From assembly GCA_023398335.1 (NCBI GenBank), contig JAEWSJ010000009.1:55567-119566 (forward strand): 64,000 nt of DNA, given 5' to 3'. This document shows positions 10,601 to 61,894 of the stretch, piece after piece. The notes under the pieces were generated by a model. It was given only the letters and a program-made list of their open reading frames with translations, was not told the origin of the DNA and did not search any database. A program made the translations under genes and the position numbers. Each line of letters begins with the position of its first letter. Positions within the stretch are counted from its first letter, which is position 1. This DNA is from Bacillota bacterium (GTDB lineage Bacteria > Bacillota_I > Bacilli_A > RFN20 > CAG-288).

Positions 10601-10659
10601 TTATTATTTCATATAAAAATTTTCCTTATATTTACTAAATGATGTGAGGAGATTTTTTT

Positions 10660-14404: not shown

Positions 14405-14476
14405 TTGAATAAAATATTTTTTAGTAATAAACTAAATAAATGTTGTTATACTTATTATATAAAAGAGGAAAAAATT

Positions 14477-17818: not shown

Positions 17819-19013
17819 AGTAGAAAAAATTGAGATTAAAGTTGAGACAGAATGGAAAGATTTGTTATTAAAAAAAGGGACAAAAAAGGGATTTTTATCT
17901 CAAGATGATATTTACGCCATTATGGAACCTTTCGATATATCAGATGACCAATTGGACGAATTAATTAATTATGTTAAAGAATCTGGAATTGAAATTAAAA
18001 ATGATGTTGAAGAGGATGAACCTATTATTGATGATAGTTTAACACCTGAAGACTTACTTAAAAATGATGATGATATACTTGAAGATGATAATTTTGAAAT
18101 TGAAGTTGAAGAAGAGTCTATTCCTGAAATTCATGATTTAGAATTTTCAATTGATAATGTTGATATTAAGAATAATGACCCAGTTAAACAATATTTACGT
18201 GAAATTGGTAAATATCGTGTCTTAAAAGGAAAAGATGAAGAGATTGAAATTGCTCGTCGAATTGCTGAGGGTGATGAATCAGCTAAAGAAGAACTTACAA
18301 ATTGCAATTTAAAATTAGTTATTTCTATCGCTAAACACTATGTCAATAGAGGAATGCAATTCTTGGATTTAATTCAAGAAGGTAATTTAGGATTGATGAA
18401 AGCTGTCGAAAAGTTCGATTATACAAAAGGCTATAAATTTTCAACATATGCTACATGGTGGATTAGACAAGCCATCACTAGAGCTTTAGCTGATCAAGCT
18501 CGTACAATACGTATTCCTGTCCATATGGTTGAAACAATAAATAAAATTACTCGTGCTTCACGTAAATTAACACAAAAGTTAAATCGTGATCCTACACCTG
18601 AAGAAATTTCTAAAGAACTTGATGGCGCATACTCTGCTGAGAGAATTAGAGAAATTCAACTGATTGCCATGGATCCTTTATCATTAGAGAAACCTGTTGG
18701 TGAAGAAGAAGATTCACATGTTGGTGATTTCATCGAAGATAAAGATAATGAATCACCATTAAAATATGCTAATTCTTCTTTATTAAAAGATAAATTAAAT
18801 GATGTTTTAGGTGAATTAACAGATCGTGAAGAAAGAGTCATTCGTTTACGTTATGGCCTTGATGATGGAAGAAACCACACTCTTGAAGAAGTTGGCAAAG
18901 AATTTGGTGTTACTCGTGAACGTATTCGTCAAATTGAAGCCAAAGCAATTAAGAAATTACGTCATCCAACACGTTCAAAACAATTGAGAGATTATTTAGA
19001 CGATATAAATTAA
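17811..19013 (+). CDS. sigA: RNA polymerase principal sigma factor
   Basis: Regions 1.1 to 4.2 present. [14 protein letters not shown] (2.4) and [21 protein letters not shown] (4.2). The dnaG-sigA order matches Bsu. Confidence 0.9.
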
Positions 19014-19092: not shown

Positions 19093-20121
19093 ATGAGTAA
19101 AGACATTAACAAATCCTTAATTAATGATTATGTTAGTAGTATTGATTCTTCAAAAATTGCCAAGTCTAAAATGATAAGCGATTTCATTGATGAGCAAAAT
19201 TTGAATGAAGATGAGATTGATTATCTTTTTCGTGCTTTAAAAGATAAAAACATTCGACTTTCTGAGATTGATTTTAATAGCCCTAGTACTTCAAGTAAAA
19301 AAATATATTCTACGTCTGACTCGTTAAATATGTATTTGCAAGAGATTGGTCGCTATCCTTTATTAACATTTGAAGATGAAAAAAAATTATCGAAACTAAT
19401 CCATGAAGGCGATACCGAAGCTTATGATGAATTGGTCAATAGCAACCTAAGACTTGTTGCATCAATAGCTAAAGAATACAAAGGCAAGAGCACTTTATCA
19501 TATCAAGATTTAATTCAAGAGGGTAATTTAGGGCTTTTACGTGCTGCTCAAAAATACGATTATACAAGAGGCTTTAAGTTTTCAACTTACGCCGTATGCT
19601 GGATAAGACAATCTATTTCACGTGCAATAGCCTCAAAAGGGCACGCTATTGCCTTGCCAGTATATATTCAAGAATCATTAAATAAAATTAAAGGTATATC
19701 TAGTAAATTAGTTTTAAGATACGATAGAGATCCTACCCCAAAAGAAATAGCTGATGAGTCAAGAGATGAATTTACTGAAGACAAAGTTAGAAAACTTTTA
19801 TCATATGATAATTCGGTTGTTTCTTTGGACAAACCAGTTAATGAAAATGATTCAGGAGTTTCATTAGCTAATTTTTTATCAAATGATGATAATAGCCTAT
19901 TAATTGATAATCAAATAGAAGATATTAGATATGCCATTAATAAACTATCCGAACGAGAACGCAGCTTAATTATTAAACGTTATGGTTTATATGATAATAG
20001 TCCTCACACTTTGGAAACTTTAGGAGAAGAAGAAGGCGTAACACGTGAACGTGCACGTCAGCTTGTAAATCGCGCTCTAAAAAAGATGGCAGAATATTTA
20101 AAAGATGGCAGTAATAAGTAA
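19093..20121 (+). CDS. Sigma-70 family sigma factor, SigA paralog (group 2-like)
   Basis: 342 aa with regions 1.2 to 4.2: YLQEIGRYPLLTFEDE, TYAVCWIRQSISRA, GVTRERARQLVNRALKKM. Has its own terminator/promoter context after sigA. Confidence 0.8.
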   Translation: MSKDINKSLINDYVSSIDSSKIAKSKMISDFIDEQNLNEDEIDYLFRALKDKNIRLSEIDFNSPSTSSKKIYSTSDSLNMYLQEIGRYPLLTFEDEKKLSKLIHEGDTEAYDELVNSNLRLVASIAKEYKGKSTLSYQDLIQEGNLGLLRAAQKYDYTRGFKFSTYAVCWIRQSISRAIASKGHAIALPVYIQESLNKIKGISSKLVLRYDRDPTPKEIADESRDEFTEDKVRKLLSYDNSVVSLDKPVNENDSGVSLANFLSNDDNSLLIDNQIEDIRYAINKLSERERSLIIKRYGLYDNSPHTLETLGEEEGVTRERARQLVNRALKKMAEYLKDGSNK

Positions 20122-24515: not shown

Positions 24516-25808
24516 ATGTCTGAAATTATTTATAAACCACGTGGAACTATAGATTATTTAGGTACAAACAAAATTCTATTAGATTCTGTTTGCAATTTTT
24601 TAGATAATTATAGTTTTAAATACGGAGCAAAGAAAATTGATACTCCTATGTTCGAAGATGGTAAATTATTTGTAAGGGGAGTTGGTGAATCCACTGATAT
24701 TGTTACGAAAGAAATGTTTAGATTAGACGTTAAAGGTGAACATGATTACATATTGCGACCAGAGTTTACCGCTTCTATAAACCGTGCAATCGTTGAAAAT
24801 AAATTATATGCTTCACCAGATCTTCCATTGAAATTCTGTTACCATGGTCCAGTATTTCGTTTTGAACGTCCGCAAAGTGGTAGATATCGTCAATTTAATC
24901 AATTTGGCGTTGAATTTATCGATGCTAAAATTGACTTACAAACACAATTAGATGCTATCTTATTGTTCTATAATGCTGCTAGTGATTTACTCGGTCATAA
25001 ACTTCTTCTTAAAATCAATTATTTAGGTGATTTTAAGACAAGAGAAGCATATAAAACTGCTCTTAAAGAATATTATGCCGATAAAATTGATACCATGTGT
25101 GATGATTGTAAAAATAGATTTGTAACAAATCCATTACGTATCTTAGATTGTAAAGTTGAACAAGATATTGAAATAAATAAAGGTGCCCCATCATTAGGTT
25201 CATTTATTGTCGGCGAAGAAAAAGAAAAATTTGATAATATTTGTTCTGTACTCACCGCGTTAAATATTCCTTTCGAAATAGATAATAAACTTGTTCGTGG
25301 ACTTGATTATTATACTGGTGTTGTCTTTGAATTATATGATCCATCAGCTATTTCATTAGGTGCTATTGGCGGGGGAGGTCAATACGATAAATTAATGAAA
25401 GAGATTAGTGGAATTGAAGATGAAGGATTAGGTTTTTCATACGGCGTTGAAAGATTGCTTTTATCCTTAACAGACGAACGTAAGAATGATTTAATCAAAG
25501 ATGCTTTACCTCAGTTAGATTTTTTTACTATAGATTTACGTCAACAAAAAGATATTTTTCCAATTGTTGTAGGAGATTTATTACGTAAGAATGGATACAA
25601 AGTATCTAGTTCATCATATTCAAAAGCTTTAAATGGCTCATTAAAGATGTCCAATAGAGAAAATGCAAAGTACAGTTTAATATATGATGATTACAACCCG
25701 TCAAAAGTTATCGTAAAAAACATGATGGAGCGTTCTCAAGAAATTATTGAATATACATCAGAAGCAGAATTAGTAAAAACTATAATTAATTTAGTTAAAG
25801 GAGAATAG
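24516..25808 (+). CDS. hisS: Histidyl-tRNA synthetase
   Basis: Class II motifs. Position before aspS. Confidence 0.85.
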   Translation: MSEIIYKPRGTIDYLGTNKILLDSVCNFLDNYSFKYGAKKIDTPMFEDGKLFVRGVGESTDIVTKEMFRLDVKGEHDYILRPEFTASINRAIVENKLYASPDLPLKFCYHGPVFRFERPQSGRYRQFNQFGVEFIDAKIDLQTQLDAILLFYNAASDLLGHKLLLKINYLGDFKTREAYKTALKEYYADKIDTMCDDCKNRFVTNPLRILDCKVEQDIEINKGAPSLGSFIVGEEKEKFDNICSVLTALNIPFEIDNKLVRGLDYYTGVVFELYDPSAISLGAIGGGGQYDKLMKEISGIEDEGLGFSYGVERLLLSLTDERKNDLIKDALPQLDFFTIDLRQQKDIFPIVVGDLLRKNGYKVSSSSYSKALNGSLKMSNRENAKYSLIYDDYNPSKVIVKNMMERSQEIIEYTSEAELVKTIINLVKGE

Positions 25809-25811
25809 CAT

Positions 25812-27539
25812 ATGTTACGTACAAAAAATAATGGGGAATTAAGACTAAGTAATGTTGGTGAGAATGTTATCCTTACTGGCTGGGTTTCTAAAGTAAGAAA
25901 TCTTGGAGCTTTGGTATTCGTTGACTTACGAGATCGATATGGAATAACTCAAATAAATATAGATCCAAAGTTATATGATTTAACACCTTTAAAAAATGAA
26001 TATTGTGTTCAAATAGAGGGCGTAGTTCAAGCTAAAGCTGAGCAAAATAAGAATTTGCCTACTGGTGAAATTGAAGTCTTAGCTTCTAAAATAAAGATTT
26101 TTTCTGAATCGGAATTAACCCCGTTCATTATTGCTGATAAGACTGATGCCCTTGAAGATACAAGATTAAAAACAAGGTATCTTGATTTAAGAAGACCTGT
26201 TCTTCAACATAATCTTGAACTAAGACACGCTTTATTAAAATCTACAAGAGAGTATCTAGAAGGATTAAATTTTTTGGAGGTTGAAACTCCAACTTTAATT
26301 AAATCTACTCCTGAAGGTGCTCGTGATTATTTAGTTCCTTCTCGTACTAGACCAGGTACTTTCTACGCCTTACCTCAATCTCCACAAATTTACAAGCAAC
26401 TATTAATGATTTCCGGTATGGATAGATATTATCAAATTGCACGTTGTTACCGAGATGAAGATCAAAGAGCAGATAGACAACCAGAATTTACTCAAATTGA
26501 TGTTGAAATGTCATTTATTGAAAGAGAAGATGTTTTAGGTGTAATTGAGAATTTATTACGCAAAGTATTTAAAGACACTATCAATTATGATTTGCCAAAA
26601 TTTAAACGTATTTCATATAAAGATGCTATAGAAAAATATGGCAGCGATAAACCGGATATGCGTTTTGATATGGTACTACAAGATGTTTCTTCATTATTAA
26701 GTAATGCTGGATTCGAAGCTTATAACAATAAGATTGTAAAGTGCTTTGTTGCGCATTCATCTGCTGCGGCGACCACAAGAAAAATTATTGATAAAGATAA
26801 TGAAGAAGCTAAAAAGTTTAAAGTTCATGGTGTAAGCCATCTAAAATATATTAATGGCGAATTATCAGGTTCTATCATTAAATTCTTTTCACAAGAAACC
26901 ATCGCTTCTTTAGTCTCATCTTTGAAATTAGAAGAAGATGATTTAGTTATTGTTTGTGCAGATGAAGACATGGAAAAATGTTCTATAGCCTTAGGTGCAT
27001 TAAGATGTGCTTATGCTGAAAAGTTAGGCCTTAGAGATAATAATGTATTTGCCCCTTTGTTTGTTCTAGATTGGCCGTTATTTGGGCGTGAAGATGGCAA
27101 TATTGTTTCATTATCAAACCCATTTACTAGACCACGTGATGAAGATTTAAAGTACTTAGATAGCGACCCAACAAAAGTTCTATCTTATGCTTATGATACG
27201 GTTATGAATGGACTTGAATTATCATCTGGTTCGTTGAGAATATTTGATGGTAAACTTCAGGAAAAAGTATTTGAATTATTAGGTTTATCTGATGAAGATA
27301 TTAAGAACAGATTTGGTTTCTTTGTTGACGCATTTAATTATGGAACTCCCCCACACGGCGGATTTGCCCTTGGTGTTGAAAGAATTTCTATGTTATTATG
27401 TAAAACTGATAACGTCCGTGATGTTGTCGCATTCCCAAAAAATTTGAAAGCTATTTGCCCAATGGCAGATTGTCCTTCTTCAGTTCCAACAGAAAATTTG
27501 GATATCTTGGGAATAGAAGTTAAAAAGGAGATAAAATAA
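25812..27539 (+). CDS. aspS: Aspartyl-tRNA synthetase
   Basis: OB-fold N-terminus, class II motifs (FRDE-like QIARCYRDEDQRADRQPEFTQ, GGFALGVERI). Confidence 0.95.
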   Translation: MLRTKNNGELRLSNVGENVILTGWVSKVRNLGALVFVDLRDRYGITQINIDPKLYDLTPLKNEYCVQIEGVVQAKAEQNKNLPTGEIEVLASKIKIFSESELTPFIIADKTDALEDTRLKTRYLDLRRPVLQHNLELRHALLKSTREYLEGLNFLEVETPTLIKSTPEGARDYLVPSRTRPGTFYALPQSPQIYKQLLMISGMDRYYQIARCYRDEDQRADRQPEFTQIDVEMSFIEREDVLGVIENLLRKVFKDTINYDLPKFKRISYKDAIEKYGSDKPDMRFDMVLQDVSSLLSNAGFEAYNNKIVKCFVAHSSAAATTRKIIDKDNEEAKKFKVHGVSHLKYINGELSGSIIKFFSQETIASLVSSLKLEEDDLVIVCADEDMEKCSIALGALRCAYAEKLGLRDNNVFAPLFVLDWPLFGREDGNIVSLSNPFTRPRDEDLKYLDSDPTKVLSYAYDTVMNGLELSSGSLRIFDGKLQEKVFELLGLSDEDIKNRFGFFVDAFNYGTPPHGGFALGVERISMLLCKTDNVRDVVAFPKNLKAICPMADCPSSVPTENLDILGIEVKKEIK

Positions 27540-32042: not shown

Positions 32043-32140
32043 TAATTATCCTCCTAAAGCATTACATATAATATTATATATTATGTAGAAATGAAATGTG
32101 TTTTTTTGTTATAATTTATAATGGAAAGTGAGAAATAAAT

Positions 32141-34090
32141 ATGTCAGAAAATAAATATAATGCTGATAACCTCACAGTGCTTAAAGGACTACAACCAGTT
32201 CGTGAAAGACCTGGTATGTATATAGGTTCAACCGATATCAATGGATTACATCATCTAGTGTGGGAAATTGTTGATAATGCTGTTGATGAAGCAAATGCAG
32301 GTTATGGAAAAAATATCACTGTTACGATTAATTTAGATGGGTCTATATCAATTTTAGATGAGGGTCGTGGTGTTCCTTGTGATTATAATCATAAGGAAAA
32401 ACTTTCTGGATTTGATATGGTTTATCGTATGTTACATGCAGGTGGTAAATTTGATGAATCAAACTATAAAACAGCTGGAGGACTACACGGGGTTGGTGGT
32501 GCAGTTGTAAATGCCTTATCATCTTGGATGGAAATTCACTCCTATCGTGATGGAAACGACAATTTTATTCGCTTTGAGAATGGTGGAAGCAAAGAATCCG
32601 ATATCGTAATAACTCCTTTAAAATCTTTTAAAAGAGGTACATTAGTTACTTTTTTACCAGATGCAAAAATATTTGAAGATACAACATTCGATTATCAAAG
32701 AATAGCCAATTCTCTAGATGATCGTGCTTGTTTAACAAAAGGTGTAACTTTTCATCTTGTTGACAAGAGAAATGATCGTAAGCAAGACTTTGTTTATACT
32801 GATGGAATTAAAGAATATTTTCAAGTTAAGAATTTTGGCAAAAGTCCTTTATGTGAACCAATCTATATTGAAGGTTCAGATGATGGAATAAAAGTTGAAT
32901 TAATTTGCCAATATTTCGATGGTGATTACAGTGAAAAAATCAATTCATTTGCTAATGGTGTTCGAACCGTCGATGGTGGACATCATGTCAGTGGATTAAG
33001 AAAAGCCTGGACAATATGTTTTAATAATTACGCTTTAAGCCATAAATTAATTAAACCTTCGATGCATCTTGAAGGAGAAGATATCAGAGAAGGATTCAAC
33101 GGAATTTTATCTTGTTGGATACCGGAAACTATTCTTCAATTTGAAGGACAAACAAAAGGAAAATTGGGAACAAAAGAAGCTAATGCTGCTGTTGATAATA
33201 TCGTCGAAAAAAAATTAACCTATTATTTAGAAGAACACGCTGATCAAGCGGATGCGATTGTAAAGAAAACTTTGGATTCGCTTAATGCAAGATTAAAGGC
33301 GAAAGAAGCGAAAGATCTTGCTCGAAAAGGAACAAAATCAAATTCTAAGGAATCTAATCTTTCTGGTAAGCTTACTCCAGCAAGTTCAAAAGAATATAAA
33401 AATAATGAATTGTTTATTGTTGAAGGTGATTCCGCAGGCGGTTCGGCTAAGAAGTGTCGTGATCGTATGCACCAAGCAATTCTACCTCTTAGAGGCAAAC
33501 CTAAAAATGTCGTTGGAGCGACTTCTGACTCAGATATTTTTGAAAATAAGGAACTTAATACAATAATTTATACCATCGGAGCAGGTTGTGATGATGATTT
33601 TAAATTAAAAGATATTCATTATGACAAGATAATTATTATGACCGATGCTGATGATGATGGCTGCCATATATCTAATTTACTTATCGCGTTCTTTTATGAA
33701 CATATGCGTCCTTTGATTGAAGCAGGCCACATATATTTAGCGTGCCCTCCTTTATATCGACTTGCAAAAAAAGATAAAGAAATATATTGTTGGTCTGAAG
33801 AGGAACTTATTGAAGGTCGTAAAGAAATGGGAAGTGGAAATTACACTTTATCACGATTCAAAGGATTAGGTGAAATGGATGCTGCACAACTTGGTAAAAC
33901 CACAATGAATAAAGGTACTAGAAAACTTATTCAGATCACTATTGAAGATGAAGATGAATGTGAAGATAAAGTTAATTTATTTATGGGAAAAGATGCTGAT
34001 AGAAGAAAAGTATGGATTTCAAATAACATTGATTTCTCCTATCGTACAGATGTTTATGAGGAGGTAAAACGTAATGAAGTCGAAAAGTAA
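32141..34090 (+). CDS. parE: Type IIA topoisomerase B subunit, topoisomerase IV ParE by synteny
   Basis: GHKL ATPase and TOPRIM domains. plsY-parE-parC order as in Firmicutes. Confidence 0.75.
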   Translation: MSENKYNADNLTVLKGLQPVRERPGMYIGSTDINGLHHLVWEIVDNAVDEANAGYGKNITVTINLDGSISILDEGRGVPCDYNHKEKLSGFDMVYRMLHAGGKFDESNYKTAGGLHGVGGAVVNALSSWMEIHSYRDGNDNFIRFENGGSKESDIVITPLKSFKRGTLVTFLPDAKIFEDTTFDYQRIANSLDDRACLTKGVTFHLVDKRNDRKQDFVYTDGIKEYFQVKNFGKSPLCEPIYIEGSDDGIKVELICQYFDGDYSEKINSFANGVRTVDGGHHVSGLRKAWTICFNNYALSHKLIKPSMHLEGEDIREGFNGILSCWIPETILQFEGQTKGKLGTKEANAAVDNIVEKKLTYYLEEHADQADAIVKKTLDSLNARLKAKEAKDLARKGTKSNSKESNLSGKLTPASSKEYKNNELFIVEGDSAGGSAKKCRDRMHQAILPLRGKPKNVVGATSDSDIFENKELNTIIYTIGAGCDDDFKLKDIHYDKIIIMTDADDDGCHISNLLIAFFYEHMRPLIEAGHIYLACPPLYRLAKKDKEIYCWSEEELIEGRKEMGSGNYTLSRFKGLGEMDAAQLGKTTMNKGTRKLIQITIEDEDECEDKVNLFMGKDADRRKVWISNNIDFSYRTDVYEEVKRNEVEK

Positions 34091-36665
34091 GAAAACTGAA
34101 ATTATCGAAGATACACGTATTGAACCTTCTGAAGTATCTTCTGTCATGGCCACAGGATTTAATAGATATGCTAAAGCTGTATTGCTTGAACGTGCAATTC
34201 CAGATGTAAGAGATGGATTAAAACCTGTTCAAAGAAGAATTATTTATACCATGTATGAAAGTGGTAATGTTTTTTCAAAACCAACAAGAAAATGCGCTCG
34301 TACTGTCGGTGATGTTATGGGTAAATTTCACCCACATGGCGATTCATCAATCTATGATGCTTTATGTAGATTGTCCCAAGATTGGAAGATGGAAGTTCCA
34401 TTAGTTACTTTCCAAGGTAATAATGGCTCTATTGATAATGATCCACCAGCTGCATATAGATACACTGAATCAAAATTATCAAAAATATCAGAATTATTAG
34501 TTCAAGATATTGATAAAAATACAGTCAATATGACGTTGAATTTTGATGATACTTTACTTGAACCAACAGTTTTACCTGCAAGATTTCCTAATTTGTTGGT
34601 AAATGGTGCACAAGGCATTGCTGTTGGTGCTGCTACATATATTCCTTCGCACAATTTAGAAGAAATCATCGATGCTACTATTTATCGTATTGAACATAAA
34701 AGATGTACAGTTCAAGATTTGTTGCAATTTATTAAAGGGCCTGATTTTCCAACTGGTGGCACCATTGATAATACTGAAGCCTTAAAGCAAATGTATGAAA
34801 CAGGGCAGGCAACTTTTTACATTCATTGTGATACTACAATCGATGAAATAACAAACCAAATTATTATTACCGGTTTGCCTTTTGGAATGGTTAAATCTCA
34901 ATTTGTTGCTGATTTAGACAAACGTAAAATTAACGATAAACTAGATAATATTGAAGAAATTCGTGATGAATCTACCGAAGATATTCGTGTTGTTATTGAT
35001 GTTAAACAAGGACAAGATCCTGCTTCAATCCTTTCATACTTACGTCAAAAAGGTGCTTTAAGAAGTACTTATGCTGCTAATATGCTAGCGATTGATAAAG
35101 GCCATCCAAAAACGATGAATGTTCTCGAAATATTAAATTCATATATTTCTCATCAGGAAGAGGTCATTACTCGTCGTTCTAAATTTGATTTAGATAAAAA
35201 AACCATCCGACTTGAAGTTGTTGATGGTTTGATTAAAGCAGTATCTATTATTGATCAAGTAATTCATACTATACGTTCTTCTAAAGGAAGAGAAGATTCA
35301 AAACTTAATATTATAAATGCTTTTAATTTCACTGATAGACAAGCGGAAGCGATTGTAACGATGCAACTCTATCGTTTATCTAATACTGATGTCACGCTTT
35401 TGATGCAAGAAAAAGAGCAATTAACTAAAGATATAACTGAACTTAAGGAAATTCTTGCAAATGAAACTAAACTGGACAGAGTTATTATTAAAGATCTTAA
35501 GGAAATTAGAGATACATATAAGACACCACGTAAGACTACGATTCTCGATGAAAAAATTAAATTCGAAGCTGTTGATGTTACAAAATTAATCGCTAAAGAA
35601 GATGTTTATGTTGTTTTATCAAAAGATGGATATATAAAGAAATCATCCGTTCGTTCATATCAAGCAGCTACAAATGGTAGTGATGTTTTATCTTCCTTAC
35701 CAAAGATTAAACAGGGGGATAGAATTGTCCTTAATCAACCATGTACAACACATGATTCTGTTATTGCTTTCTTCGCTTCCGGCACTTATGCTTACATACC
35801 TGTATTTAAAATTGAGGATTGTAAATGGAGAGAAGATGGAAAACATTTAAATACTATTTTAAGTGTTAACTCCAATGATAAAGTAGTTTCTGCATTTATA
35901 GTTAAAACATTTGATTTACCAACTTATCTTGTATTTTTAACTAAAGAAGGGAAGATTAAACGTACTTTACTAAAAGAATACGAACAACAGAAGCTAACTC
36001 TACGTCCGTTAAAAGCTATAGGTCTTGGCAAAGGTGATTCCTTGATTGATGTCAAATTAACAAGTGGAAACAGTGACATTATCGTTTGCCAAGATAATGG
36101 ATATAGCTCTCGTTTTAATGAAAATGAGGTCCCAATTGTTGGAATTAAGGCTGCGGGTGTAAAAGCTGTTAATTTTGGAAAAGAAAAATCCAAATTGATT
36201 CAACTTATTGTTTTAAATTCGAACGAACATACGAAGATTTTAGTACTTTCTAATAAACTTTGCGCTCGTATTATTTCATCGAATAGTATCGATGTTACTT
36301 CTCGTTTAGGTATGAAACAAGCTGTGGTTAGAATCTTTAAAGCTAACCCAATGAAAATTGTCTCGATGGATAAGGTAAATCTTAAACGTGGCAAAGAAAT
36401 AGAAAATAATGTATTTATCTACACTGATGACACAAATGAAATAGTCGATATAAATTTACTCGATGTTGTTTCAGTTGGCACTGGTATGAAAGCTAATGTT
36501 CCATTAGAAGGAAAAACAATTAGTGGAAGACATACGGATGGCGATATTATTGATGAAAATTGCGAAATTGAAAAGCCTACTTTAATTGTTGAACAAGTTA
36601 AAGCTAAAGAGGACGATGGAGAAAAACAACTATCTTTGTTTGATCTTTTCGATGAAGAAAAATGA
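34074..36665 (+). CDS. parC: Type IIA topoisomerase A subunit, ParC by synteny (no GyrA-box seen)
   Basis: Catalytic Tyr region and acidic C-terminal tail. No QRRGGKG motif. Confidence 0.7.
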
Positions 36666-37186
36666 TAAAAAAAATAATTGCTGATTTTCATGCGACCAGC
36701 GTTTATTCTTTGGATATTGAAGAGTTAAAACTACTTAATATTAAGCTTGCTTTTATCGACCTCGATAATACTTTAGCTCAATATGATTTGCTAAGTCCCG
36801 AGAAAAGGACCTATGAACTAATAAAAAAATATAAAGACAATGGCATTGAGGTAGTTATTCTTTCGAATAATCGTGAGAAAAGAGTTAGCCCTTTTGTCAG
36901 CAAATTAAAAGTAAAATATATATCTTCATGTCATAAGCCATTTAAGAGCAAAATCAAAAAGTATATTATCTCTAATTGTATTGAGACATCTAATGCTATA
37001 ATAATAGGAGATCAACTTCTTACTGATGTTATGTTGGCTCACGCTTTAAATATGAAATGTGTTCTTACTGAACCTATTTCCAAAATTGATCAATTTACAA
37101 CAAGATTTAATCGTCTTATTGATAGACCTTTACGTAAGAAATACTTAAAAGAAAATCGACTTGGAATAAATATTAATGTAAAATAA
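36662..37186 (+). CDS. yqeG: HAD-family phosphatase YqeG
   Basis: FIDLDNTL DxD motif. First gene of the yqeG-yqeH-nadD-yqeK-rsfS cluster. Confidence 0.75.
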   Translation: MIKKIIADFHATSVYSLDIEELKLLNIKLAFIDLDNTLAQYDLLSPEKRTYELIKKYKDNGIEVVILSNNREKRVSPFVSKLKVKYISSCHKPFKSKIKKYIISNCIETSNAIIIGDQLLTDVMLAHALNMKCVLTEPISKIDQFTTRFNRLIDRPLRKKYLKENRLGININVK

Positions 37187-37206: not shown

Positions 37207-38352
37207 ATGTTACTAAAAAACAAGAATTCTGGAATCACTGATGAAATTAGAATTAAAAGATGTTATGGTTGTGGAACTATCTTACAATCAAAAGATCCTT
37301 CATTACCTGGGTTCATCAAAGAATCAAAACTAAATGAAGAAGAGAATTGCTTGTGTGAAAGATGTTATCGTTTACGTCATTACAACATTCAAGACGTTCC
37401 CCATTTCTCTGAAGATTATGAGAAAATATTAAAACGTGCTAATAGTGAAAATGCTTTGATAGTTTATGTCATTGATTTGTTTGCTTTTGAAGCAAGCATG
37501 ATTGATGGTATTAGTGAACATTTAGGTAAGAAAGTATTAGTTATATTAAATAAACGTGATATTCTTCCTAAGTCTCTTCAAGATGATAAAATCATTGCTA
37601 ATGCCAAACGTCAATTATTAATCGAACATATTTCTCCTCTTGATATTGTTGTTACTTCTTCATCTAAAAACTATAATTTAGATGAATTATTCATGAAAAT
37701 GAACAAGCTTAGAGAAGGGAAGAATGTATACTTTATAGGTGCATCACAAGTTGGTAAATCTTCTATTATCAATGCGATATTAAAGAATTACAAGAACGAA
37801 ACAGATAAATGCATTACTACTTCAATGTTTCCAGGTACAACGCTAGATATCATAGATATACCTTTAGATAATTTGTCATCAATGTATGATACTCCCGGAA
37901 TTTTTAAAGTTGAATCGATTTATAATCACGTCGAAAGAACTATCTTAAGATACATTATTCCTCGTGATGAAATTAAACCACGTGTATTCCAATCTGGCGA
38001 TAAACAAAGTTATATTCTTGGTGCGCTTGTTCGTTTGGATTTTGTCTCCGGAAATAAAACAAATATCATATTTAATTTTTCCAATGATATTGCAATTACA
38101 AGAACAAAATTAGATAAGGGTGAAAAGACCTTTAATTCTCTTGCACAAACAGGACAAGTTAAACCTACATCGATGAATATTAAAATTATGTCAGACTTAG
38201 AAAAGCATTCCTTTACTTTACCTTCTTCTGGACTAATCAATATAAAGATATTTGGTATGGGCTACATAACACTTGAAGCAAATTGCCAAGTCTTTGATTT
38301 ATATACGCCAAAAAATGTTGGTATCAAGGTCGTTGCAACAGATATAAAGTAA
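37207..38352 (+). CDS. yqeH: Ribosome biogenesis GTPase YqeH
   Basis: N-terminal zinc ribbon CYGCG...CERC and a circularly permuted GTPase domain (GASQVGKSS). Confidence 0.8.
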   Translation: MLLKNKNSGITDEIRIKRCYGCGTILQSKDPSLPGFIKESKLNEEENCLCERCYRLRHYNIQDVPHFSEDYEKILKRANSENALIVYVIDLFAFEASMIDGISEHLGKKVLVILNKRDILPKSLQDDKIIANAKRQLLIEHISPLDIVVTSSSKNYNLDELFMKMNKLREGKNVYFIGASQVGKSSIINAILKNYKNETDKCITTSMFPGTTLDIIDIPLDNLSSMYDTPGIFKVESIYNHVERTILRYIIPRDEIKPRVFQSGDKQSYILGALVRLDFVSGNKTNIIFNFSNDIAITRTKLDKGEKTFNSLAQTGQVKPTSMNIKIMSDLEKHSFTLPSSGLINIKIFGMGYITLEANCQVFDLYTPKNVGIKVVATDIK

Positions 38353-38355
38353 TTT

Positions 38356-39462
38356 ATGGATAGAATCATTTTATTTGGTGGTTCTTTTGACCCAATTCAT
38401 AATGGACATTTAGAAATAGCTTCCTTCGCTCTTAAGACTTTAGGGGCGAAGAAGGTTATTTTTATTCCCGCAAAAAACCCACGCTGGAAAAAACCAACAC
38501 CAATCGAAGATCGCTTAAATTTAGTTCAACTCGCATTAAAAGGTAAGGATAATTTCGAATTATCAACTTATGAAATTGAATCAAAAGAAGAAACAAATTA
38601 TACCTATGATACGGTAAAGCATTTTAAATTAGTTTATCCTAATGATGAATTATATTTTTTAATTGGCTTTGATCAAGTTAATCAGTTGGATAGATGGAAA
38701 AACATTGATGAATTATCTTCATTAATACACTTTTTGGCCGTTTATAGACCAATTGATGATTTAAACAAAGAAAATATCAACAAGTATCATTTAACCGTTT
38801 TAGAAGGCTTAAATTTATCTGTCTCATCAACGCTGATTAGGGAACTTAAGTCTCTTGATTTGCCATTACCTTGTATAAAATATATCTTGGATAAAGAATT
38901 GTATTTTGTACCTAAAGTTAAGTCATATCTAAAGACCTCACGCTATTTACATTCAGTAAGTGTCGCTTATACCGCCTATGATATTGCAGAAGCAAATAAG
39001 TTAAACAAGTATGATGCATTTTTAGCGGGATATCTCCACGATGTCGGAAAATATGCTAAAATAGAAAAGTATGAAGATATAGTTAAAAAATTATATTCAA
39101 AATATTTTCCATTTGGTATTCCAAATTGGGTCTATCATCAGTTCATCGGCAAAATTATCGTTCAAAATGACTTTAAGATTCTCGATGAAGATATTCTTGA
39201 GTCAATTGAATTTCACACGACAGGGAAGAGAAATATGTCAGCGTTAGATAAGATTATCTTTGCTGCTGATAAAATTGAACCTACACGTGGATTTGATTCT
39301 AGTGATCTTATTAATTCGATGAAAAAAGATTATGAAAAAGGATTTATTGAGGTATTAAAAGCTAACAGAGAATATTTAGTATCGCATAATTCATATGTAC
39401 AAAATGAAGATTTATTGACGAAAGAATGTTATGATTATTATTTAAAAGGAGAAGAGAAATAA
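38356..39462 (+). CDS. nadD: Fusion protein: nicotinate-nucleotide adenylyltransferase NadD (N-terminus) plus HD-domain YqeK (C-terminus)
   Basis: Residues 1-190 carry ILFGGSFDPIHNGHL (nucleotidyltransferase HxGH). Residues 200-368 carry HSVSVAYTAYDIA...GYLHDVGK (HD motif). In Bsu these are two adjacent genes. Confidence 0.8.
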   Translation: MDRIILFGGSFDPIHNGHLEIASFALKTLGAKKVIFIPAKNPRWKKPTPIEDRLNLVQLALKGKDNFELSTYEIESKEETNYTYDTVKHFKLVYPNDELYFLIGFDQVNQLDRWKNIDELSSLIHFLAVYRPIDDLNKENINKYHLTVLEGLNLSVSSTLIRELKSLDLPLPCIKYILDKELYFVPKVKSYLKTSRYLHSVSVAYTAYDIAEANKLNKYDAFLAGYLHDVGKYAKIEKYEDIVKKLYSKYFPFGIPNWVYHQFIGKIIVQNDFKILDEDILESIEFHTTGKRNMSALDKIIFAADKIEPTRGFDSSDLINSMKKDYEKGFIEVLKANREYLVSHNSYVQNEDLLTKECYDYYLKGEEK

Positions 39463-39807
39463 ATGTATCAAGCAAAAAGCCTAGCAAAAAAAATTGCAAA
39501 TAAATTAGACTTCAGTAAAGCTGAAGGTGTAATTATATACGATGTCAGCAATAGAACACCATTAGCTCATTATTATATTGTTTGTAGCGCAGATAACGCT
39601 CGTAAATTAAACGGCTTAAAAGAAGTTGCATGCGAAGTAATTGAGAGCGCTGTAGGTGGCGATGTTGGTCATATCGAAGGTAGACAAGGCTCCTCATGGT
39701 TTGTTATTGATGCCCATGATATAGTCGTTCATATTTTTGATGAAAATGAAAGGCAAAGAGTTAATTTTGATAAAATTTACGCCTCTTGTCCAACTGTTGA
39801 ATATTAA
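39463..39807 (+). CDS. rsfS: Ribosomal silencing factor RsfS (Iojap)
   Basis: 114 aa with the Iojap family pattern. Confidence 0.8.
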   Translation: MYQAKSLAKKIANKLDFSKAEGVIIYDVSNRTPLAHYYIVCSADNARKLNGLKEVACEVIESAVGGDVGHIEGRQGSSWFVIDAHDIVVHIFDENERQRVNFDKIYASCPTVEY

Positions 39808-39835: not shown

Positions 39836-40543
39836 ATGAAAAATATTTTATTAATTGCAGCGATGCCAGAAGAATTAGATGCTTTAAAAGATAAGTTAAG
39901 TAAATTTAAAGAAAAAAGTTATGGCGTAATAAAAGGTATCGAATTTAAAACTAAAAAGGGAAATGTTTTTGCTTTTGTTGGTAAAGTTGGTAAAGCTAAT
40001 ACGGCGTTTAACATCGGATATTTAGCTGCGCAAATGGATATTAAACGTATCATTAATTTTGGAGTGGCAGGCTCATTATCAAAAAATATCGTACCTCTTG
40101 ACGTTGTAGTAGCCGAAAAGGTTTGTTATTTTGATTGTGATTTAACATCAGACCCAAAATACAAATTAGGTCAAATGGCAGGTGAGGAATTGTATTATTT
40201 AGCTGATCCAACAATCAACAGAATATTAAATAAAATTAATACAACTTTAAATATTAAGACAGGAACAATAATCTCTTCTGATTCATTCGCTACTAAAGCT
40301 AATATGACAGAAGATTTATTGAAGCATTTTGATAATCCATTATGTGTTGATATGGAGTCAGGTGCTGTAGGACAAATATCACATCGTTTAAATATTCCAT
40401 TTACAATTATTCGCGCGATATCAGATATGGTCCTTGCTGAATCTAATACAGATATGTTTAATGAATTCTTGGAAATGTCTTCTCGTCGAGCTGCATCAAC
40501 AGTCTTACATATTCTAAATAATGAATACGTTGATGAACAATAA
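39836..40543 (+). CDS. mtnN: 5'-methylthioadenosine/S-adenosylhomocysteine nucleosidase
   Basis: MKNILLIAAMPEEL... PNP/UDP phosphorylase fold. Confidence 0.8.
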   Translation: MKNILLIAAMPEELDALKDKLSKFKEKSYGVIKGIEFKTKKGNVFAFVGKVGKANTAFNIGYLAAQMDIKRIINFGVAGSLSKNIVPLDVVVAEKVCYFDCDLTSDPKYKLGQMAGEELYYLADPTINRILNKINTTLNIKTGTIISSDSFATKANMTEDLLKHFDNPLCVDMESGAVGQISHRLNIPFTIIRAISDMVLAESNTDMFNEFLEMSSRRAASTVLHILNNEYVDEQ

Positions 40544-40557
40544 TATATAAAGTCTAT

Positions 40558-40588
40558 AACCTGATAAATAATATTTGTCAGGTTTTTT
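40558..40588 (+). terminator. Rho-independent terminator after mtnN
   Basis: aacctgataaa...tttgtcagg long stem followed by T6. Confidence 0.75.
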
Positions 40589-40992: not shown

Positions 40993-41829
40993 CTATTTCG
41001 TATTAGTCTGATTCTTCTTAATTAAATTAAAAGTAATCGATTTGCTAGTAGTGATTCCATACTTCAATTCTAATTCTCTTTTAATGAAATGAATTACTAT
41101 TTCTATTATTATCATGAATAGCACTGAAATAAACGTATAACCAAATAAATCAGTCATTTCTAAATTTAAGAACGAAATATTGATCAACGTACCAATTCCC
41201 TTTAGATTCGTATTAGAAATAAATACTTCACTCATAAGCTCTACTTTCAATCCTAGAGCGGATGCTTGTGAAAGACCGATGAAGAGATAAGGAAGAGATA
41301 AAGGACACAAGACCTTTGTAAAATTATTAATTGAATGTCTGCCTTCAATTGTAATTATATCGCGATAGTCTTTTAATATAATTTTACTTCCCTCAAGAGT
41401 AGATTTATATATAAGTGGAAAAGTAATTAAGAAGACAATTACATATGTTGTGACTTTAGTATAGATAAGAAGGACTAGAATTAACGATACTGTAGGTATA
41501 GATGTCAAAAAATAGATCATCGGTTTTAAGATTACTTCGATTTGAGAAAAGAAACCAGCGAGTAATCCAAGAAAGTATCCTATAAAGGTCGATATAAATA
41601 AAACGATAATCACTCGCATAATCGAATAGCCAAGATTTATCCATGTATCATTATCAGCCATCAAAATAAACATTTTATATATAGTTAAGAATAACTCTGG
41701 AACAACTTTATAAGAAGTAAGATATGCAATTAGTTCGTATATTCCACATAACAAAATAATACCTATAAGCATATAGATAGAATTTAGAAATTTTTTGTTC
41801 TTAAAAATGTTAATGTTCAATTCCTTCAT
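40993..41829 (-). CDS. ABC-importer type permease (6 TM)
   Basis: 278 aa with 6 TM helices and an EAA-like loop (LSQASALGLKVELMSEVF). Sits downstream of two lipoprotein genes. Confidence 0.5.
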   Translation of the reverse strand: MKELNINIFKNKKFLNSIYMLIGIILLCGIYELIAYLTSYKVVPELFLTIYKMFILMADNDTWINLGYSIMRVIIVLFISTFIGYFLGLLAGFFSQIEVILKPMIYFLTSIPTVSLILVLLIYTKVTTYVIVFLITFPLIYKSTLEGSKIILKDYRDIITIEGRHSINNFTKVLCPLSLPYLFIGLSQASALGLKVELMSEVFISNTNLKGIGTLINISFLNLEMTDLFGYTFISVLFMIIIEIVIHFIKRELELKYGITTSKSITFNLIKKNQTNTK

Positions 41830-41924: not shown

Positions 41925-42977
41925 TTATTTATACAATTTAGAGAATGTAGTATCTTTTAGAGCTGAGAATCCAGTTAATGCTGCTTCAGCAAAGAATTCA
42001 TTGATTGAAAATTGCTTAGAATTAAATGCAAGTCCATTAACGTCTAATACAGTAGTTAAGGTCTCTTTATCTACTCCATAGGTTGTACTGGCTTTATAGG
42101 TATTATTTTCTTCTGCTTTATTTATTAAGCTTAAGATACCCTGCCCTTTATTATTTTCTAAATCATTTAAACTTTCATCAAAATTAGCTAAGAAATTATC
42201 TCGACTTGATATTAAATCCTTTTCTGTAGCATTTTCGAGACGATTGGAAATAAATAATCCAGCTTGTGGAAATCCATCAAAGCCATTCCCAGAATTCATA
42301 TTGTTTGTTTTCGAATATTTTTGCCACTCTTTTGTTATATTATATTTAATTGATAATGAATTATTAGCCGCTAACGCCTTGGTAACGTATGGTTCGGAAA
42401 GAATAACATAATTTACTGTTTTCCCTTCTAATACCTTAGTTTCAGCAACGCTTTCAGCTAAAGCAACACCAGCTAAAGACGAATCTATTTTCACATTGTA
42501 CATTTTTTCAAATAGCGAATTAAATATAGATGGGGACCCAAATGAAACAATATTATCTTCTTCATCCAACGTTGAATTTGTGTCATTTCCTAAGTCAATG
42601 AGATAAGCATTACCTTTTGTAACAACCCGAGCTAATTTATATGAGGAGTTTTTCTTTTCGATAAATGTTTGCCCTTTTGTTATATCAAATATAATGGCAT
42701 CATATTCTGTGCCTGAAACAAAAGCCGCTGGAATAATCGTTGCAGGATTCGAAGCAATTGTGCAATTATCGTGATCTTCAACAAAAGGAGCTAATGCAAC
42801 AGAAGGGGCACCAATCGGTGACAAAACCTTAAAATCTAGTTTCTTAGTACTTAATGCACTATTACAACTAGTAAGTAAAAGTGGCACCATTAATAAAGTA
42901 ATATATTTTTTTTGCATAATTATTTCTCCTATGTTTATTATATAGCTATAACATTTATTTTCTAATGATATGCTCAT
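41925..42977 (-). CDS. Lipoprotein, putative solute-binding protein (paralog A)
   Basis: Signal peptide plus lipobox LLLTSC. Paralogous to the next gene (shared GLFISNRLENA, KLARVT/V.GNAY). Confidence 0.5.
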   Translation of the reverse strand: MSISLENKCYSYIINIGEIIMQKKYITLLMVPLLLTSCNSALSTKKLDFKVLSPIGAPSVALAPFVEDHDNCTIASNPATIIPAAFVSGTEYDAIIFDITKGQTFIEKKNSSYKLARVVTKGNAYLIDLGNDTNSTLDEEDNIVSFGSPSIFNSLFEKMYNVKIDSSLAGVALAESVAETKVLEGKTVNYVILSEPYVTKALAANNSLSIKYNITKEWQKYSKTNNMNSGNGFDGFPQAGLFISNRLENATEKDLISSRDNFLANFDESLNDLENNKGQGILSLINKAEENNTYKASTTYGVDKETLTTVLDVNGLAFNSKQFSINEFFAEAALTGFSALKDTTFSKLYK

Positions 42978-44009
42978 CTATTTATAGAATGAAGAATAAA
43001 CAGATGGAGCGATTGAATCAACAAAAACATTTAATCTACGTAAATTATTTACTCTTGCAAAACTATCAAGATCAAGCGTATAAGAGCAAAATCCTAAAGC
43101 ATTCACGCCGTTCGGATTTTTATTTCCGTTTAAACAATCACAAATATCGCCATATTCCGCTCCGAAATAATCAATTAAGTCAATTTTCTTATCATCATAA
43201 TAATTCTTAATAATTGATGAAGTAGCATTACCGTTGCTTTGTGATAAATCTGATAGATTCTTATCAATCGAGATTAAAAAATTCTCTCTAGCGTCCTTTA
43301 AAGGGCCTTCTTTAGCATTTTCTAATCTATTAGAAATAAATAAACCGATTGAAGGAACACGAGCATAATCAGTTTCAACGCTACAAAATGTTGAGACAAG
43401 ATTTTGAAATAGATGATAATTTCCATTTTTATCATTTAATAAACGCGAAACATATGGTTCATTTAATATGGCATAATCACCTTCTCCGGAAATGAAATGA
43501 TTATAAGTATCTTTAACATCATCATAAAAAGTGTCTATCGCATTATTATTTATAGCATTATTCTTTATAAATAAAGAGTTTTGAATACCCATAGATGTAT
43601 ATGTATGAGTGTCATAGCGACTATAAGCATAATCATATGAAATGACATTATCAAATGATGAGATAGCTTCTCCATCTGCTACCTCACCTCTCTTTATGAC
43701 ATAAGCATTTCCACATCCTGTGACACGAGCTAGTTTAAATGGGACATTTTTATTTTGTATTAACTCAATTCCTTTAGCTAAATCATATAATATGAAATCA
43801 TATTCTGAAGTGAAAAAAGCATCGTATACTAGAGAAGAAGTAACAAAAGCACAATTATCCGTATCATCTGCATATGAAAGAAAAGGATAGGAATCCCCTC
43901 CTTTAAATGTAATTATTTTAAAAGTCAAACCTTTTTGTATCCAAGAACATGAGGATATAAGTAATGAACTAGATAAAACTAAGGTTAATAATGCTTTTGT
44001 TTTTTTCAT
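42978..44009 (-). CDS. Lipoprotein, putative solute-binding protein (paralog B)
   Basis: Lipobox LLISSCSW. Tandem duplicate of 41925-42977. Confidence 0.5.
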   Translation of the reverse strand: MKKTKALLTLVLSSSLLISSCSWIQKGLTFKIITFKGGDSYPFLSYADDTDNCAFVTSSLVYDAFFTSEYDFILYDLAKGIELIQNKNVPFKLARVTGCGNAYVIKRGEVADGEAISSFDNVISYDYAYSRYDTHTYTSMGIQNSLFIKNNAINNNAIDTFYDDVKDTYNHFISGEGDYAILNEPYVSRLLNDKNGNYHLFQNLVSTFCSVETDYARVPSIGLFISNRLENAKEGPLKDARENFLISIDKNLSDLSQSNGNATSSIIKNYYDDKKIDLIDYFGAEYGDICDCLNGNKNPNGVNALGFCSYTLDLDSFARVNNLRRLNVFVDSIAPSVYSSFYK

Positions 44010-55492: not shown

Positions 55493-55516
55493 AAAAAAGT
55501 CCAAGAAGGACTTTTT
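55493..55516. terminator. Terminator of leuS (usable in both directions), overlapping the leuS stop
   Basis: aagtcc aagaa ggactt hairpin flanked by A6 and T5. Confidence 0.6.
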
Positions 55517-57920
55517 ATCTAACAACAATATTCAATATTTTGTTTTTTACAAATATAACCTTAACTATTGTTTTGCCGTCTAAATTACGTTTTACCGCAT
55601 CTATTTCACTAGCTAAAGCTAATACCTTATTCTGATCATTTTCATCTCTAGTTACTTCAAGAGTACCTCTTGTTTTGCCATTAACGGATACGGCTATAAC
55701 AACAGTATTTTGAACTGTCTTATTATCATCGTAAGTTGGCCAAGATTCAAAATCTATAAAGCCATTCCCACCCATCATATTAAACAATTCTTCGCCAACA
55801 TGTGGAACAACTGGGAATAACATTTTTACTAAGCCTAACATATATGTTCTATTTAGTTTTGGTGAATTATATAGTTCATTAACAAAAATCATCAATTGAG
55901 ATATTGCAGTGTTAAAACTTAAGCTTTCATAATCAGCAGTAACTTTCTTAACTGTATAGTTATATATGTAATCAAGAGACTTAACTTCTTCATCAGTCCA
56001 TTTTACTAGATATTCTTCATCTGAAAATAATCTATATACTCTTTGAATAAATCTCTTTGCGCCAGCTAAGCCATTATTAGACCATGGTAAACTTTGATTT
56101 AATGGTCCCTTAAACAATTCATATAATCTAAGCGAATCAGCACCAAATTCATTTATAACATCATCAGGATTAACAACATTACCTCTAGATTTAGACATTT
56201 TTTGTCCATCAGAGCCTAAAATCATTCCTTGATGATATAATTTCTTAAATGGTTCTTTGCAGGAGAATACACCTTTGTCATATAAGTATTTATGCCAAAA
56301 TCTAGCATAAAGAAGATGTAAAACCGCGTGCTCAGATCCGCCGATATATTGATCAACTGGTAGCCAATGATCAAGCAATGTTTTATCGCCAATTTCATTT
56401 TCATTTTTAGGATCAATATAACGAGCATAATACCATGATGAACCAGCCCATTGAGGCATAATGTTAGTTTCTCTTTCACCTTTTTTACCATCAATTACAA
56501 CATTGATAAATGATGTAGCTTTTGAAAGAGGTGGCTTACCATTTGTAGTAGGTTTATAATCATCAAGTTCAGGTAAGACTAATGGAAGTTCACTGTAATT
56601 AACAGGTTTTAACGAACCATCTTCCATATGAATTACTGGAATTGGTTCACCCCAATAACGTTGACGTGAAAACAACCAGTCACGTAATTTGAAATTAACC
56701 TTACGTTGACCTTTTCCACTTTCTTCTAGATGCTTTGTAATTATTTCTTTAGCATCTTTTATATTTAATCCATCGGCATATGAAGAATTCATATGTTTTG
56801 AATCACCTTCAAACGCACATGAAGATATATCACCTTCAAGAACTTGAATCATTTCAATATTATGTTTTTTAGCGAATTCGTAATCTCTTTGATCATGAGA
56901 AGGAACAGCCATTACCGCTCCCGAACCATAAGAAGCTAAAACATAATCACCTATATATATAGGAACGATGGTGTTATTAATTGGATTTATAGCGTAAGCG
57001 CCAATAAACACTCCTGTTTTATCTTTATTTAATTCTGTTCTTTCAAGATCAGATTTAGATTTAATCGAGTCTAAATATGCATCGACATATTTTTGACATT
57101 CTTTTGATGTCAATTTCTTTACTAATGGATGTTCTGGGGCTAAAACAACGTATGTACAGCCAAATAAAGTATCTACTCTAGTTGTATAGACATTAAAGTA
57201 GTCTGAAGTATTTTTAACATCAAAGCGAACTTCAACACCTTCAGAGCGACCTATCCAGTTACGTTGCATTTCTACAGTTGAACTTGGCCATTCAAGCAAT
57301 GGTAAATCATCTAATAATTTTTGAGCATAAGCAGTAATTTTTAATATCCATTGTTTCATTTGAACTTTAATTACTGGGAATCCACCACGTTCTGACTTGC
57401 CGTCAATAATTTCTTCGTTAGCCAAAACAGTTCCGAGTTCCGGACAATAGTTAACCGGTCTTTCATCCATATATGCTAATTTATCATCAAATAATTTTAA
57501 GAATATCCATTGTGTCCATTTATAAAAAGATGGATCTGATGTATGAATTTCCTTGCTCCAATCATAAGACAAACCACATGAATTCATTTGCTTTTTAAAA
57601 TTTTGAATATTTGCTTCGGTAAATGGGCCAGGATTATTGTTAGTTTTTATCGCATATTGTTCCGCTGGTAAGCCGAAAGAATCAAAACCCATTGGATAAA
57701 GAACGTTAAAGCCTTGCATTCTTTTCATTCTAGCGGTAGCGTCACTGGCGGTATATCCTTCAATATGTCCAACATGTAAACCTTGGGCTGATGGATATGG
57801 GAACATATCCATTAAAAAATACTTAGGTTTAGAAAAATCACGAACATCACATTCATAAATATTACTTTCCAACCATTTCTTTTGCCATTTTTTCTCTATT
57901 TCATTTGCATCATAAGTCAT
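55515..57920 (-). CDS. leuS: Leucyl-tRNA synthetase
   Basis: HVGH and KMSKS motifs. 801 aa. Confidence 0.95.
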
Positions 57921-61877: not shown

Positions 61878-61894
61878 CTTAATCCTCCTCCTCA

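Follow-up and report, generated by a model that had tools for sequence, protein, structure and literature searches.

The 368-aa open reading frame at the centre of this analysis, which was carried out on a window of 64,000 nucleotides (the whole stretch of DNA analysed), is a genuine fusion of nadD and yqeK, in which two complete domains follow one another without a linker. Very probably, its product is a real bifunctional NadD-YqeK enzyme of a known kind, which came about by loss of the stop codon between two adjacent genes in a compact genome. Both the fusion and the idea that its halves are functionally coupled were known before, the former from a curated protein model (NF005519) and both from work on a minimal mycoplasma cell (Haas et al. 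2022, PMC9426524).

In the ORF list of the window, the frame opens with ATG and runs uninterrupted to a TAA stop at 39460-39462. A preliminary description of this DNA had read it as a single ORF combining NadD with the HD domain of YqeK, and this reading is borne out: the peptides it quoted are present, and both domains are recognized by Pfam (PF01467, cytidylyltransferase-like, residues 6-163, E 1e-21; PF01966, HD, residues 196-308, E 5e-13) as well as by NCBIfam. Residues 8-18 are GGSFDPIHNGH, HSVSVAYTAYDIA begins at residue 199, and residues 225-232 are GYLHDVGK. The top NCBIfam match is NF005519 (PRK07152), a curated 361-position model of the entire fusion that carries the name nicotinate-nucleotide adenylyltransferase. 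Residues 3-351 align with positions 2-351 of its 361 in a single stretch (E 3.9e-91). The score of 305.7 bits lies narrowly below the NCBI curated equivalog cut-off of 315, so that by the NCBI rule the protein is no equivalog of the mycoplasma protein; judged by its alignment with the profile, it is the same kind of fusion as mycoplasma NadD-YqeK, without strict equivalog status. The correct annotation would be bifunctional nicotinate-nucleotide adenylyltransferase / Np4N (Ap4A) hydrolase, rather than plain 'NadD'.

Features of the nadD::yqeK region (coordinates within the window)
Feature	Position	Strand	Basis and remarks
Best promoter-like site, TAGAAA-18-TG-TATAAT, ahead of the parE-...-mtnN block	32086..32115	+	Consensus match only
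parE	32141-34090	+	Profile assignment
parC	34074-36665	+	Profile assignment
yqeG (HAD-IIIA phosphatase), upstream	36662..37186	+	TIGR01668, 98.8 bits
yqeH (ribosome-biogenesis GTPase)	37207..38352	+	TIGR03597, 321 bits; 3-base gap to nadD start
nadD::yqeK fused ORF	38356..39462	+	368 aa, range including TAA stop; ORF listing and two-domain profile matches
NadD (NaMN adenylyltransferase) domain, residues 1-185	38356..38910	+	TIGR00482, 1KAM alignment, Foldseek against 1KAQ_A
(H/T)xGH nucleotidyltransferase motif H15-N-G-H18, inside GGSFDPIHNGH	38398..38409	+	Motif and conservation
SxxxxR/ISSTxxR ATP-phosphate motif S157-S-T-L-I-R162	38824..38841	+	Aligned with VSSTMIR of B. subtilis NadD
YqeK (binuclear HD-domain Np4N/Ap4A hydrolase) domain, residues 186-368	38911..39459	+	TIGR00488 and PDB YqeK chains
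HD dyad H228-D229	39037..39042	+	Mapped through 2O08 alignment
rsfS (yqeL, ribosome silencing factor)	39463..39807	+	TIGR00090/PF02410; ATG abuts the stop codon of the fusion
mtnN (MTA/SAH nucleosidase), last of the co-directional block	39836..40543	+	TIGR01704, 110 bits
Terminator-like hairpin and T-run just past mtnN	40558..40584	+	Consensus match only

The NadD half matches TIGR00482 over the full length of the profile (residues 6-183 on positions 1-194 of 194) with 146.4 bits, above the NCBIfam cut-off of 112.45. It aligns with B. subtilis NadD (1KAM) with an E value of 1.5e-27, and also with the enzymes of B. anthracis, S. aureus and E. faecium. In an alignment of 36 fused homologues, G8, G9, F11, D12, P13, H15, G17 and H18 are invariant, as is S158 of the second motif, while S157 and R162 are conserved in at least 90%; both motifs align with their counterparts in the B. 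subtilis and B. anthracis enzymes. A Foldseek comparison of the AF2 model with 1KAQ_A, 2QTR_A and 3E27_B (TMt 0.88, rmsd 1.8-2.0, ~190 columns) recovers the Rossmann-like NadD fold. With a complete domain and the known catalytic and substrate residues kept, this half is predicted to have NaMN adenylyltransferase activity.

Residues 188-356 cover positions 1-171 of the 173 in TIGR00488 with 107.7 bits (NCBIfam cut-off 70.15, again exceeded), and the YqeK half aligns with five solved YqeK proteins, namely 2O08 (E 1.8e-21), 3CCG, 2OGI, 8JJA and 8WMY. As a stand-alone protein, YqeK is known to hydrolyse Ap4A and Ap4N symmetrically and to decap Np4-RNA (PMC13627108, PMC8177086). We transferred residue roles through the 2O08 alignment from the Geobacillus enzyme GtYqeK (PMC13627108) and from 2O08 itself (PMC8177086). 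In these, the metal ligands are H21, H50, D51, H83, H109 and D127, the phosphate contacts R18, K54 and R133, and the aromatic clamp F135 and F163 (PMC13627108, PMC8177086). The ligands correspond to H199, H228, D229, H261, H287 and D305 in the fused protein and the phosphate contacts to R196, K232 and R311, all of them kept; the clamp is formed by F313 and Y340, where tyrosine replaces phenylalanine and the position is still aromatic. All 11 functionally mapped residues are retained in this sense, and the six metal ligands together with R196 and R311 are invariant among the 36 homologues. The sole differing position is E80 of GtYqeK, which is W259 here and which is also unconserved in active streptococcal YqeKs. 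The YqeK half, too, keeps a complete domain with its known catalytic and substrate residues, and Ap4A hydrolase activity is predicted for it.

The two halves meet at residues ~180-196 (...KELYFVPKVKSYLKTSRYLHS), a region that aligns almost without gaps with 35 fused homologues and is flanked by Y183 on one side and R196 and H199 on the other, all invariant in the alignment of 36. From the conserved 'LY' of NadD (182-183), it takes only 12 residues to reach the conserved YqeK arginine, R196. Stand-alone YqeK proteins have about 18 residues ahead of that arginine, and stand-alone NadD proteins end 2-5 residues past 'LY'. Compared with these, the C-terminal tail of NadD and about six N-terminal residues of YqeK are trimmed at the junction, and projection of the profiles gives a linker of 0. 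The AF2 model, built from the 36-sequence alignment, has a mean pLDDT of 93.7 and a pTM of 0.90, with pLDDT values of 95-98 at the junction, which indicates that the predicted structure is a compact two-domain protein rather than two beads on a flexible string. When the model was compared with the PDB using Foldseek, NadD structures gave TMt values of 0.82-0.89 and TMq values of only ~0.45; none of the solved structures among the PDB matches spans both NadD and YqeK, each covering one domain.

The gene is part of a tightly packed block, parE-parC-yqeG-yqeH-nadD::yqeK-rsfS-mtnN, with all members in one direction. The absence of aroD and yqeI from the cluster, pointed out earlier, is confirmed. 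Since yqeH ends three bases short of the nadD start, there is no room for either gene; the N-terminal YhbY domain of the metagenome protein P0119, used as a probe, gave a best E value of 3.3 over the 64 kb; and window ORFs of at least 100 aa showed no match to the shikimate dehydrogenase (aroD) or YhbY Pfam families. We conclude that this particular cluster has lost yqeI. Within the coding sequence of NadD, a hairpin resembling a terminator (38424-38451) was taken as a chance consensus match, and Rfam models, scanned against the whole window, matched no leader or riboswitch in the vicinity of the cluster. The window has a GC content of 30.4%, the standard code reads through, and the MEP-pathway genes ispG, ispH and dxs are present; on these grounds, we take the host to be one of the low-GC Bacilli and no mycoplasma. 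Outside the cluster, the window consists of unremarkable housekeeping sequence. Five aminoacyl-tRNA synthetase genes lie in the window, but there is no Rfam match at the gathering threshold; a tandem pair of sigma-70 genes and several ORFs without a Pfam match were also seen.

A homologue search of 5.8 billion proteins returned 1046 sequences at E <= 1e-5. Among the best 120 of these, every one carries PF01467 and PF01966 and covers 98-100% of the query, with a length of 356-376 aa except for two longer proteins (up to 492 aa). These two are triple fusions from metagenomes, YhbY-NadD-YqeK (P0119) and NadD-YqeK-RsfS (P0025).

Gene arrangement was compared at 80 loci on one-genome-per-species GTDB contigs, a sample that is biased because its loci were picked by their peptide patterns and by their rank in tblastn. 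The ten nearest genomes at species level (L001-L010; MAGs of uncultured Bacilli and Erysipelotrichaceae, and Anaerorhabdus; 35-49% identity) all have the fusion with a linker of 0, and all ten conserve the cluster parE-parC-yqeG-yqeH-(yhbY)-nadD::yqeK-rsfS, with yhbY (yqeI) between yqeH and the fusion in seven. In more distantly related Clostridia, Spirochaetes and Eggerthellaceae, the fusion is present at 23 loci, whereas 20 have separate adjacent genes. The linkers of these distant fusions measure 3-56 residues at loci with a complete C-domain match; the value for one locus with a partial match (L036) is uninterpretable. The separate genes share a frame at 13 of the 20 loci, which is more than expected and may be explained by the bias of the tblastn ranking. 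We considered whether split Clostridial pairs with one in-frame stop might be read-through fusions and rejected this, as the stops are mostly TAA or TAG and a Shine-Dalgarno-like sequence and an ATG follow or overlap them. In a neighbour-joining tree of the concatenated domains, which is rough and carries no support values, the window protein groups within the clade of linker-0 proteins, and the Clostridial fused forms are spread over several separate branches that differ in linker length and are interleaved with split forms. These patterns suggest one old fusion in the lineage of the window and, elsewhere, several fusions or fissions that arose independently; similar NadD-YqeK fusions probably arose more than once.

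The gene would then be an in-frame fusion, fixed long ago, of two genes that are adjacent in other Firmicutes. Its most likely origin would be the loss of a stop codon between tightly packed nadD and yqeK, with a few terminal residues trimmed, and the result would be 1:1 co-expression of NadD and YqeK. From what is known of the families, the N-domain would convert NaMN and ATP to NaAD, the last step but one in the synthesis of NAD. The C-domain would use a two-metal centre of H199, H228, D229, H261, H287 and D305 to cleave Ap4A symmetrically to 2 ADP, and it probably also cleaves other pyrophosphate-linked dinucleotides. The points against this explanation are the NF005519 score below the cut-off and the many Clostridia that keep nadD and yqeK separate.

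This last point also bears on whether a sequencing or assembly error, such as an indel or a miscalled stop, joined two separate genes: with the same frame at 13 of 20 split loci and often one stop between the genes, a single wrong base could mimic a fusion. The identical 368-aa protein is, however, found with the same neighbours on four contigs from ENA ERZ28599291 and Logan SRR13358450, which possibly stem from the same sample and are then independent in assembly only. Moreover, the best 120 of the 1046 homologues and the ten nearest genomes show the fusion in the same register, the curated profile of the fused protein aligns as one stretch, and after a miscalled stop, the C-terminal tail of NadD and the first residues of YqeK would still be there, whereas both are trimmed here. 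We regard the chance of such an artefact as negligible. The preliminary description had proposed to look for a frameshift or missed stop at about 38920-38960 and to survey related genomes, and had named an artificial read-through as the finding that would overturn it. A frameshift or hidden stop there is ruled out by the single ORF, the one-stretch match to NF005519, the identical protein in two assemblies and the gap-poor junction, and the fusion recurs in the relatives surveyed. It is also highly improbable that one of the domains is degenerate, with YqeK, for example, retained solely to give NadD a structural or regulatory attachment. Nothing specific points to this apart from the replacement of E80 by W259, at a position that varies among active enzymes as well, whereas the six metal ligands, the three phosphate contacts and the two clamp positions are all retained, invariant or nearly so in the 36 homologues, and the NadD motifs are intact.

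What the fusion is good for is a separate matter. Haas et al. (2022, mBio, PMC9426524) described JCVISYN3A_0380, the NadD-YqeK fusion of Mycoplasma mycoides JCVI-Syn3A, stated that YqeK is "fused to NadD in most mycoplasmas", and proposed that YqeK repairs the mistakes of NadD, a proofreading role that they partly tested in vitro. The NadD domain of JCVISYN3A_0380 is promiscuous, using dATP, CTP and UTP better than ATP; the YqeK domain of the same protein is no less active on NaCD and NaUD than on NaAD, and it cleaves 8-oxo-GTP besides (PMC9426524). By analogy, the YqeK half of the window protein may hydrolyse mis-made NaAD analogues (NaCD, NaUD, deoxy forms) released by a NadD of relaxed specificity, a tentative reading to which we give about one chance in three. 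Two observations count against it: YqeK has well-supported roles independent of NadD, in Ap4N turnover and Np4-RNA decapping (PMC13627108), and a Syn3A strain with a dead YqeK domain (H230A) shows neither a growth defect nor a metabolite imbalance (PMC9426524). The functional coupling that the preliminary description drew from the fusion thus stands as a published and partly supported hypothesis (PMC9426524); it is not new, and the normal growth of the H230A strain weighs against it. A neutral origin, in which NAD synthesis and the clearance of Ap4N and Np4 caps (linked to the ribosome and RNA genes of the yqe cluster) remain independent and were brought into one protein by genome compaction, without being coupled through kinetics or proofreading, has in our estimate slightly less than an even chance. 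The genes of the block overlap or sit 0-3 nt apart, the loss of one stop codon suffices, other neighbours in the cluster have been fused as well (P0119, P0025), and the documented activities of stand-alone YqeK and the normal growth of the YqeK-dead strain fit in with it. It accounts less well for linker lengths of 0, 5, 7 and 9-19 aa in several branches among split forms, which in the rough tree suggest repeated fixation, for the rigid packing predicted for the domains (pTM 0.90), and for the match in Syn3A between the analogues made by a promiscuous NadD and those cleaved by its YqeK domain (PMC9426524). The strongest form of coupling, selection for a physically joined module of synthesis and proofreading in which mis-made nicotinate dinucleotides are handed on directly from the active site of NadD to that of YqeK, is suggested by the linker-less, rigid packing of the model and by the apparently independent fusions in Clostridia, Spirochaetes and Eggerthellaceae; we consider it unlikely. 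If true, it would make NadD proofreading a general trait of NAD synthesis in Firmicutes and no quirk of a minimal mycoplasma.

Beyond the correct annotation, the significance of the fusion is slight, as it is common in mycoplasma-like and gut Firmicutes. Its presence outside the mycoplasmas and its probable repeated origin lend modest comparative support to a real functional link between NadD and YqeK, a link already proposed and tested in 2022. What the present analysis adds is modest: a range that includes non-mycoplasma, gut-type Bacilli, a probable repeated origin, and the loss of yqeI from this cluster.

Bifunctional NMN adenylyltransferase/ADP-ribose pyrophosphatases of the NadM-Nudix type occur in, for example, Synechocystis (slr0787) and Francisella (NadM). 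These proteins (NF003788/NF003786) resemble the fusion in architecture, since a pyridine-nucleotide adenylyltransferase is joined to a pyrophosphatase whose substrates are adenylylated compounds of the dinucleotide type, but they have a Nudix hydrolase fold instead of HD and belong to another adenylyltransferase subfamily. Membership in this group was rejected, the matches being weak and N-terminal only (E ~1e-3, 17-19 bits against cut-offs >350).

The separate nadD and yqeK genes of B. subtilis and other Firmicutes (NadD structures 1KAM/1KAQ; YqeK structures 2O08, 3CCG, 8JJA; Ap4A hydrolase family COG1713) are the closest counterparts of the individual domains. The comparison with the two adjacent B. 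subtilis genes was already made in the preliminary description, and it is apt: 1KAM and the 2O08-type structures match the halves separately, and each half aligns over nearly its full length with all catalytic residues. The yqeG-yqeH-...-nadD-yqeK-rsfS cluster is shared. In contrast to the B. subtilis-type arrangement, the window has one polypeptide with trimmed ends and no linker, in a cluster without aroD and yqeI.

Other fused genes in the sample, from Clostridia, Spirochaetes and Eggerthellaceae (L012, L014-L016, L018, L024-L027, L030, L031, L033-L036, L039, L045, L050, L060, L062, L066), have the same two domains in the same order within one ORF. They differ in having linkers of 5-56 residues instead of 0 and share only 26-35% identity with the window protein; given that they are interleaved with split forms in the rough tree, they are probably independent events.

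With JCVISYN3A_0380 and NF005519, the window protein shares the domain order and the length class (361 profile positions compared with 368 aa). The junction register is also the same, the catalytic HD histidine H230 of the Syn3A protein being H228 here, and the logic of the gene neighbourhood is alike. Besides the score narrowly below the cut-off, a difference lies in the host, a mycoplasma in the one case and, in the other, an uncultured gut-type Bacilli/Erysipelotrichaceae-like lineage with the standard code, ispG, ispH and dxs, ~30% GC, and nearest fused homologues that are only ~50% identical. The fusion of the minimal mycoplasma cell thus extends, in the same junction register, to uncultured gut-type Bacilli with the standard code and the MEP pathway.

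Fused nadD-yqeK ORFs also occur far from the ten closest genomes, in Clostridia, Treponema/Spirochaetaceae and Eggerthellaceae MAGs, with linkers mostly of 3-56 residues (loci L012, L014-L016, L018, L024-L027, L030, L031, L033-L036, L039, L045, L050, L060, L062 and L066 of the survey of GTDB contigs). In a rough NJ tree, these distant fused forms are intermixed with split forms, an interleaving that suggests several independent fusion events.

The separate nadD and yqeK ORFs share a reading frame in 13 of the 20 split-gene genomes (L011, L013, L017, L019-L023, L028, L029, L032, L038 and L040), whereas chance would predict about one third; at eight of these 13 loci, a single stop codon is all that separates the two ORFs. 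Every same-frame ORF starts at its own ATG and comes with a separate RBS-like sequence, so the pairs look like real separate genes. Their excess may stem from a bias in tblastn ranking, or it may be the mark of recent fusion or fission.

The yhbY (yqeI) gene lies between yqeH and nadD::yqeK in seven of the ten closest genomes (L001, L003, L004, L006, L008, L009 and L010); it is missing from L005 and L007 and from the window at 38353-38355, and a YhbY probe of the whole 64-kb window found no copy. Two metagenomic homologues, among the best 120 listed of 1046, carry a third domain: in P0119 (459 aa), a YhbY/YqeI RNA-binding domain (PF01985) precedes NadD-YqeK, and in P0025 (492 aa), RsfS (PF02410) follows it. 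Judging from these architectures, further neighbors from the yqe cluster can therefore join the fusion, unless the two proteins are frameshift artifacts of their contigs. Within the NadD coding region of the window, just 3' of the HxGH motif, a terminator-like hairpin is probably a chance match to the consensus.

Other features of the window
Feature	Position	Strand	Details
Aminoacyl-tRNA synthetase genes	1876-3786, 14405-15868, 24516-25808, 25812-27539, 55515-57920		
Overlapping ORFs	8419-9678, 9668-10600	+	no Pfam match
C39 peptidase-domain protein	10660-11823	+	387 aa
Sigma-70-family gene 1	17811-19013	+	400 aa, regions 1.1-4, rpoD-like
Sigma-70-family gene 2	19093-20121	+	342 aa, regions 1.2-4
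Hairpin	38424-38451	+	12 pairs, T-rich tail
ABC permease	40993-41829		adjoins ORF pair
Adjacent ORF pair	41925-42977, 42978-44009	-	~345 aa each
BspA-type protein	59775-61895	-	706 aa, PF13306, 239 bits

The ORF pair beside the ABC permease gave no match in a Pfam search. Both N-termini are lipoprotein-like, and motifs such as GLFISNRLENA are visibly common to the two, which are probably paralogous ABC-transporter substrate-binding proteins of an undescribed family. The only Pfam match of the 387-aa protein is its N-terminal C39 peptidase domain, and no ABC transporter domains were detected in the ORF group at 8419-11823.

The sigma-70-family genes form a tandem pair downstream of dnaG. Aminoacyl-tRNA synthetase genes of many Firmicutes are preceded by T-box leaders; although the window holds five synthetase genes, an Rfam scan of positions 1-64000 returned zero matches at the gathering threshold, with no tRNA, riboswitch or leader detected. 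The 706-aa protein carries leucine-rich repeats of the BspA type, which are typically found in the surface proteins that host-associated bacteria make.
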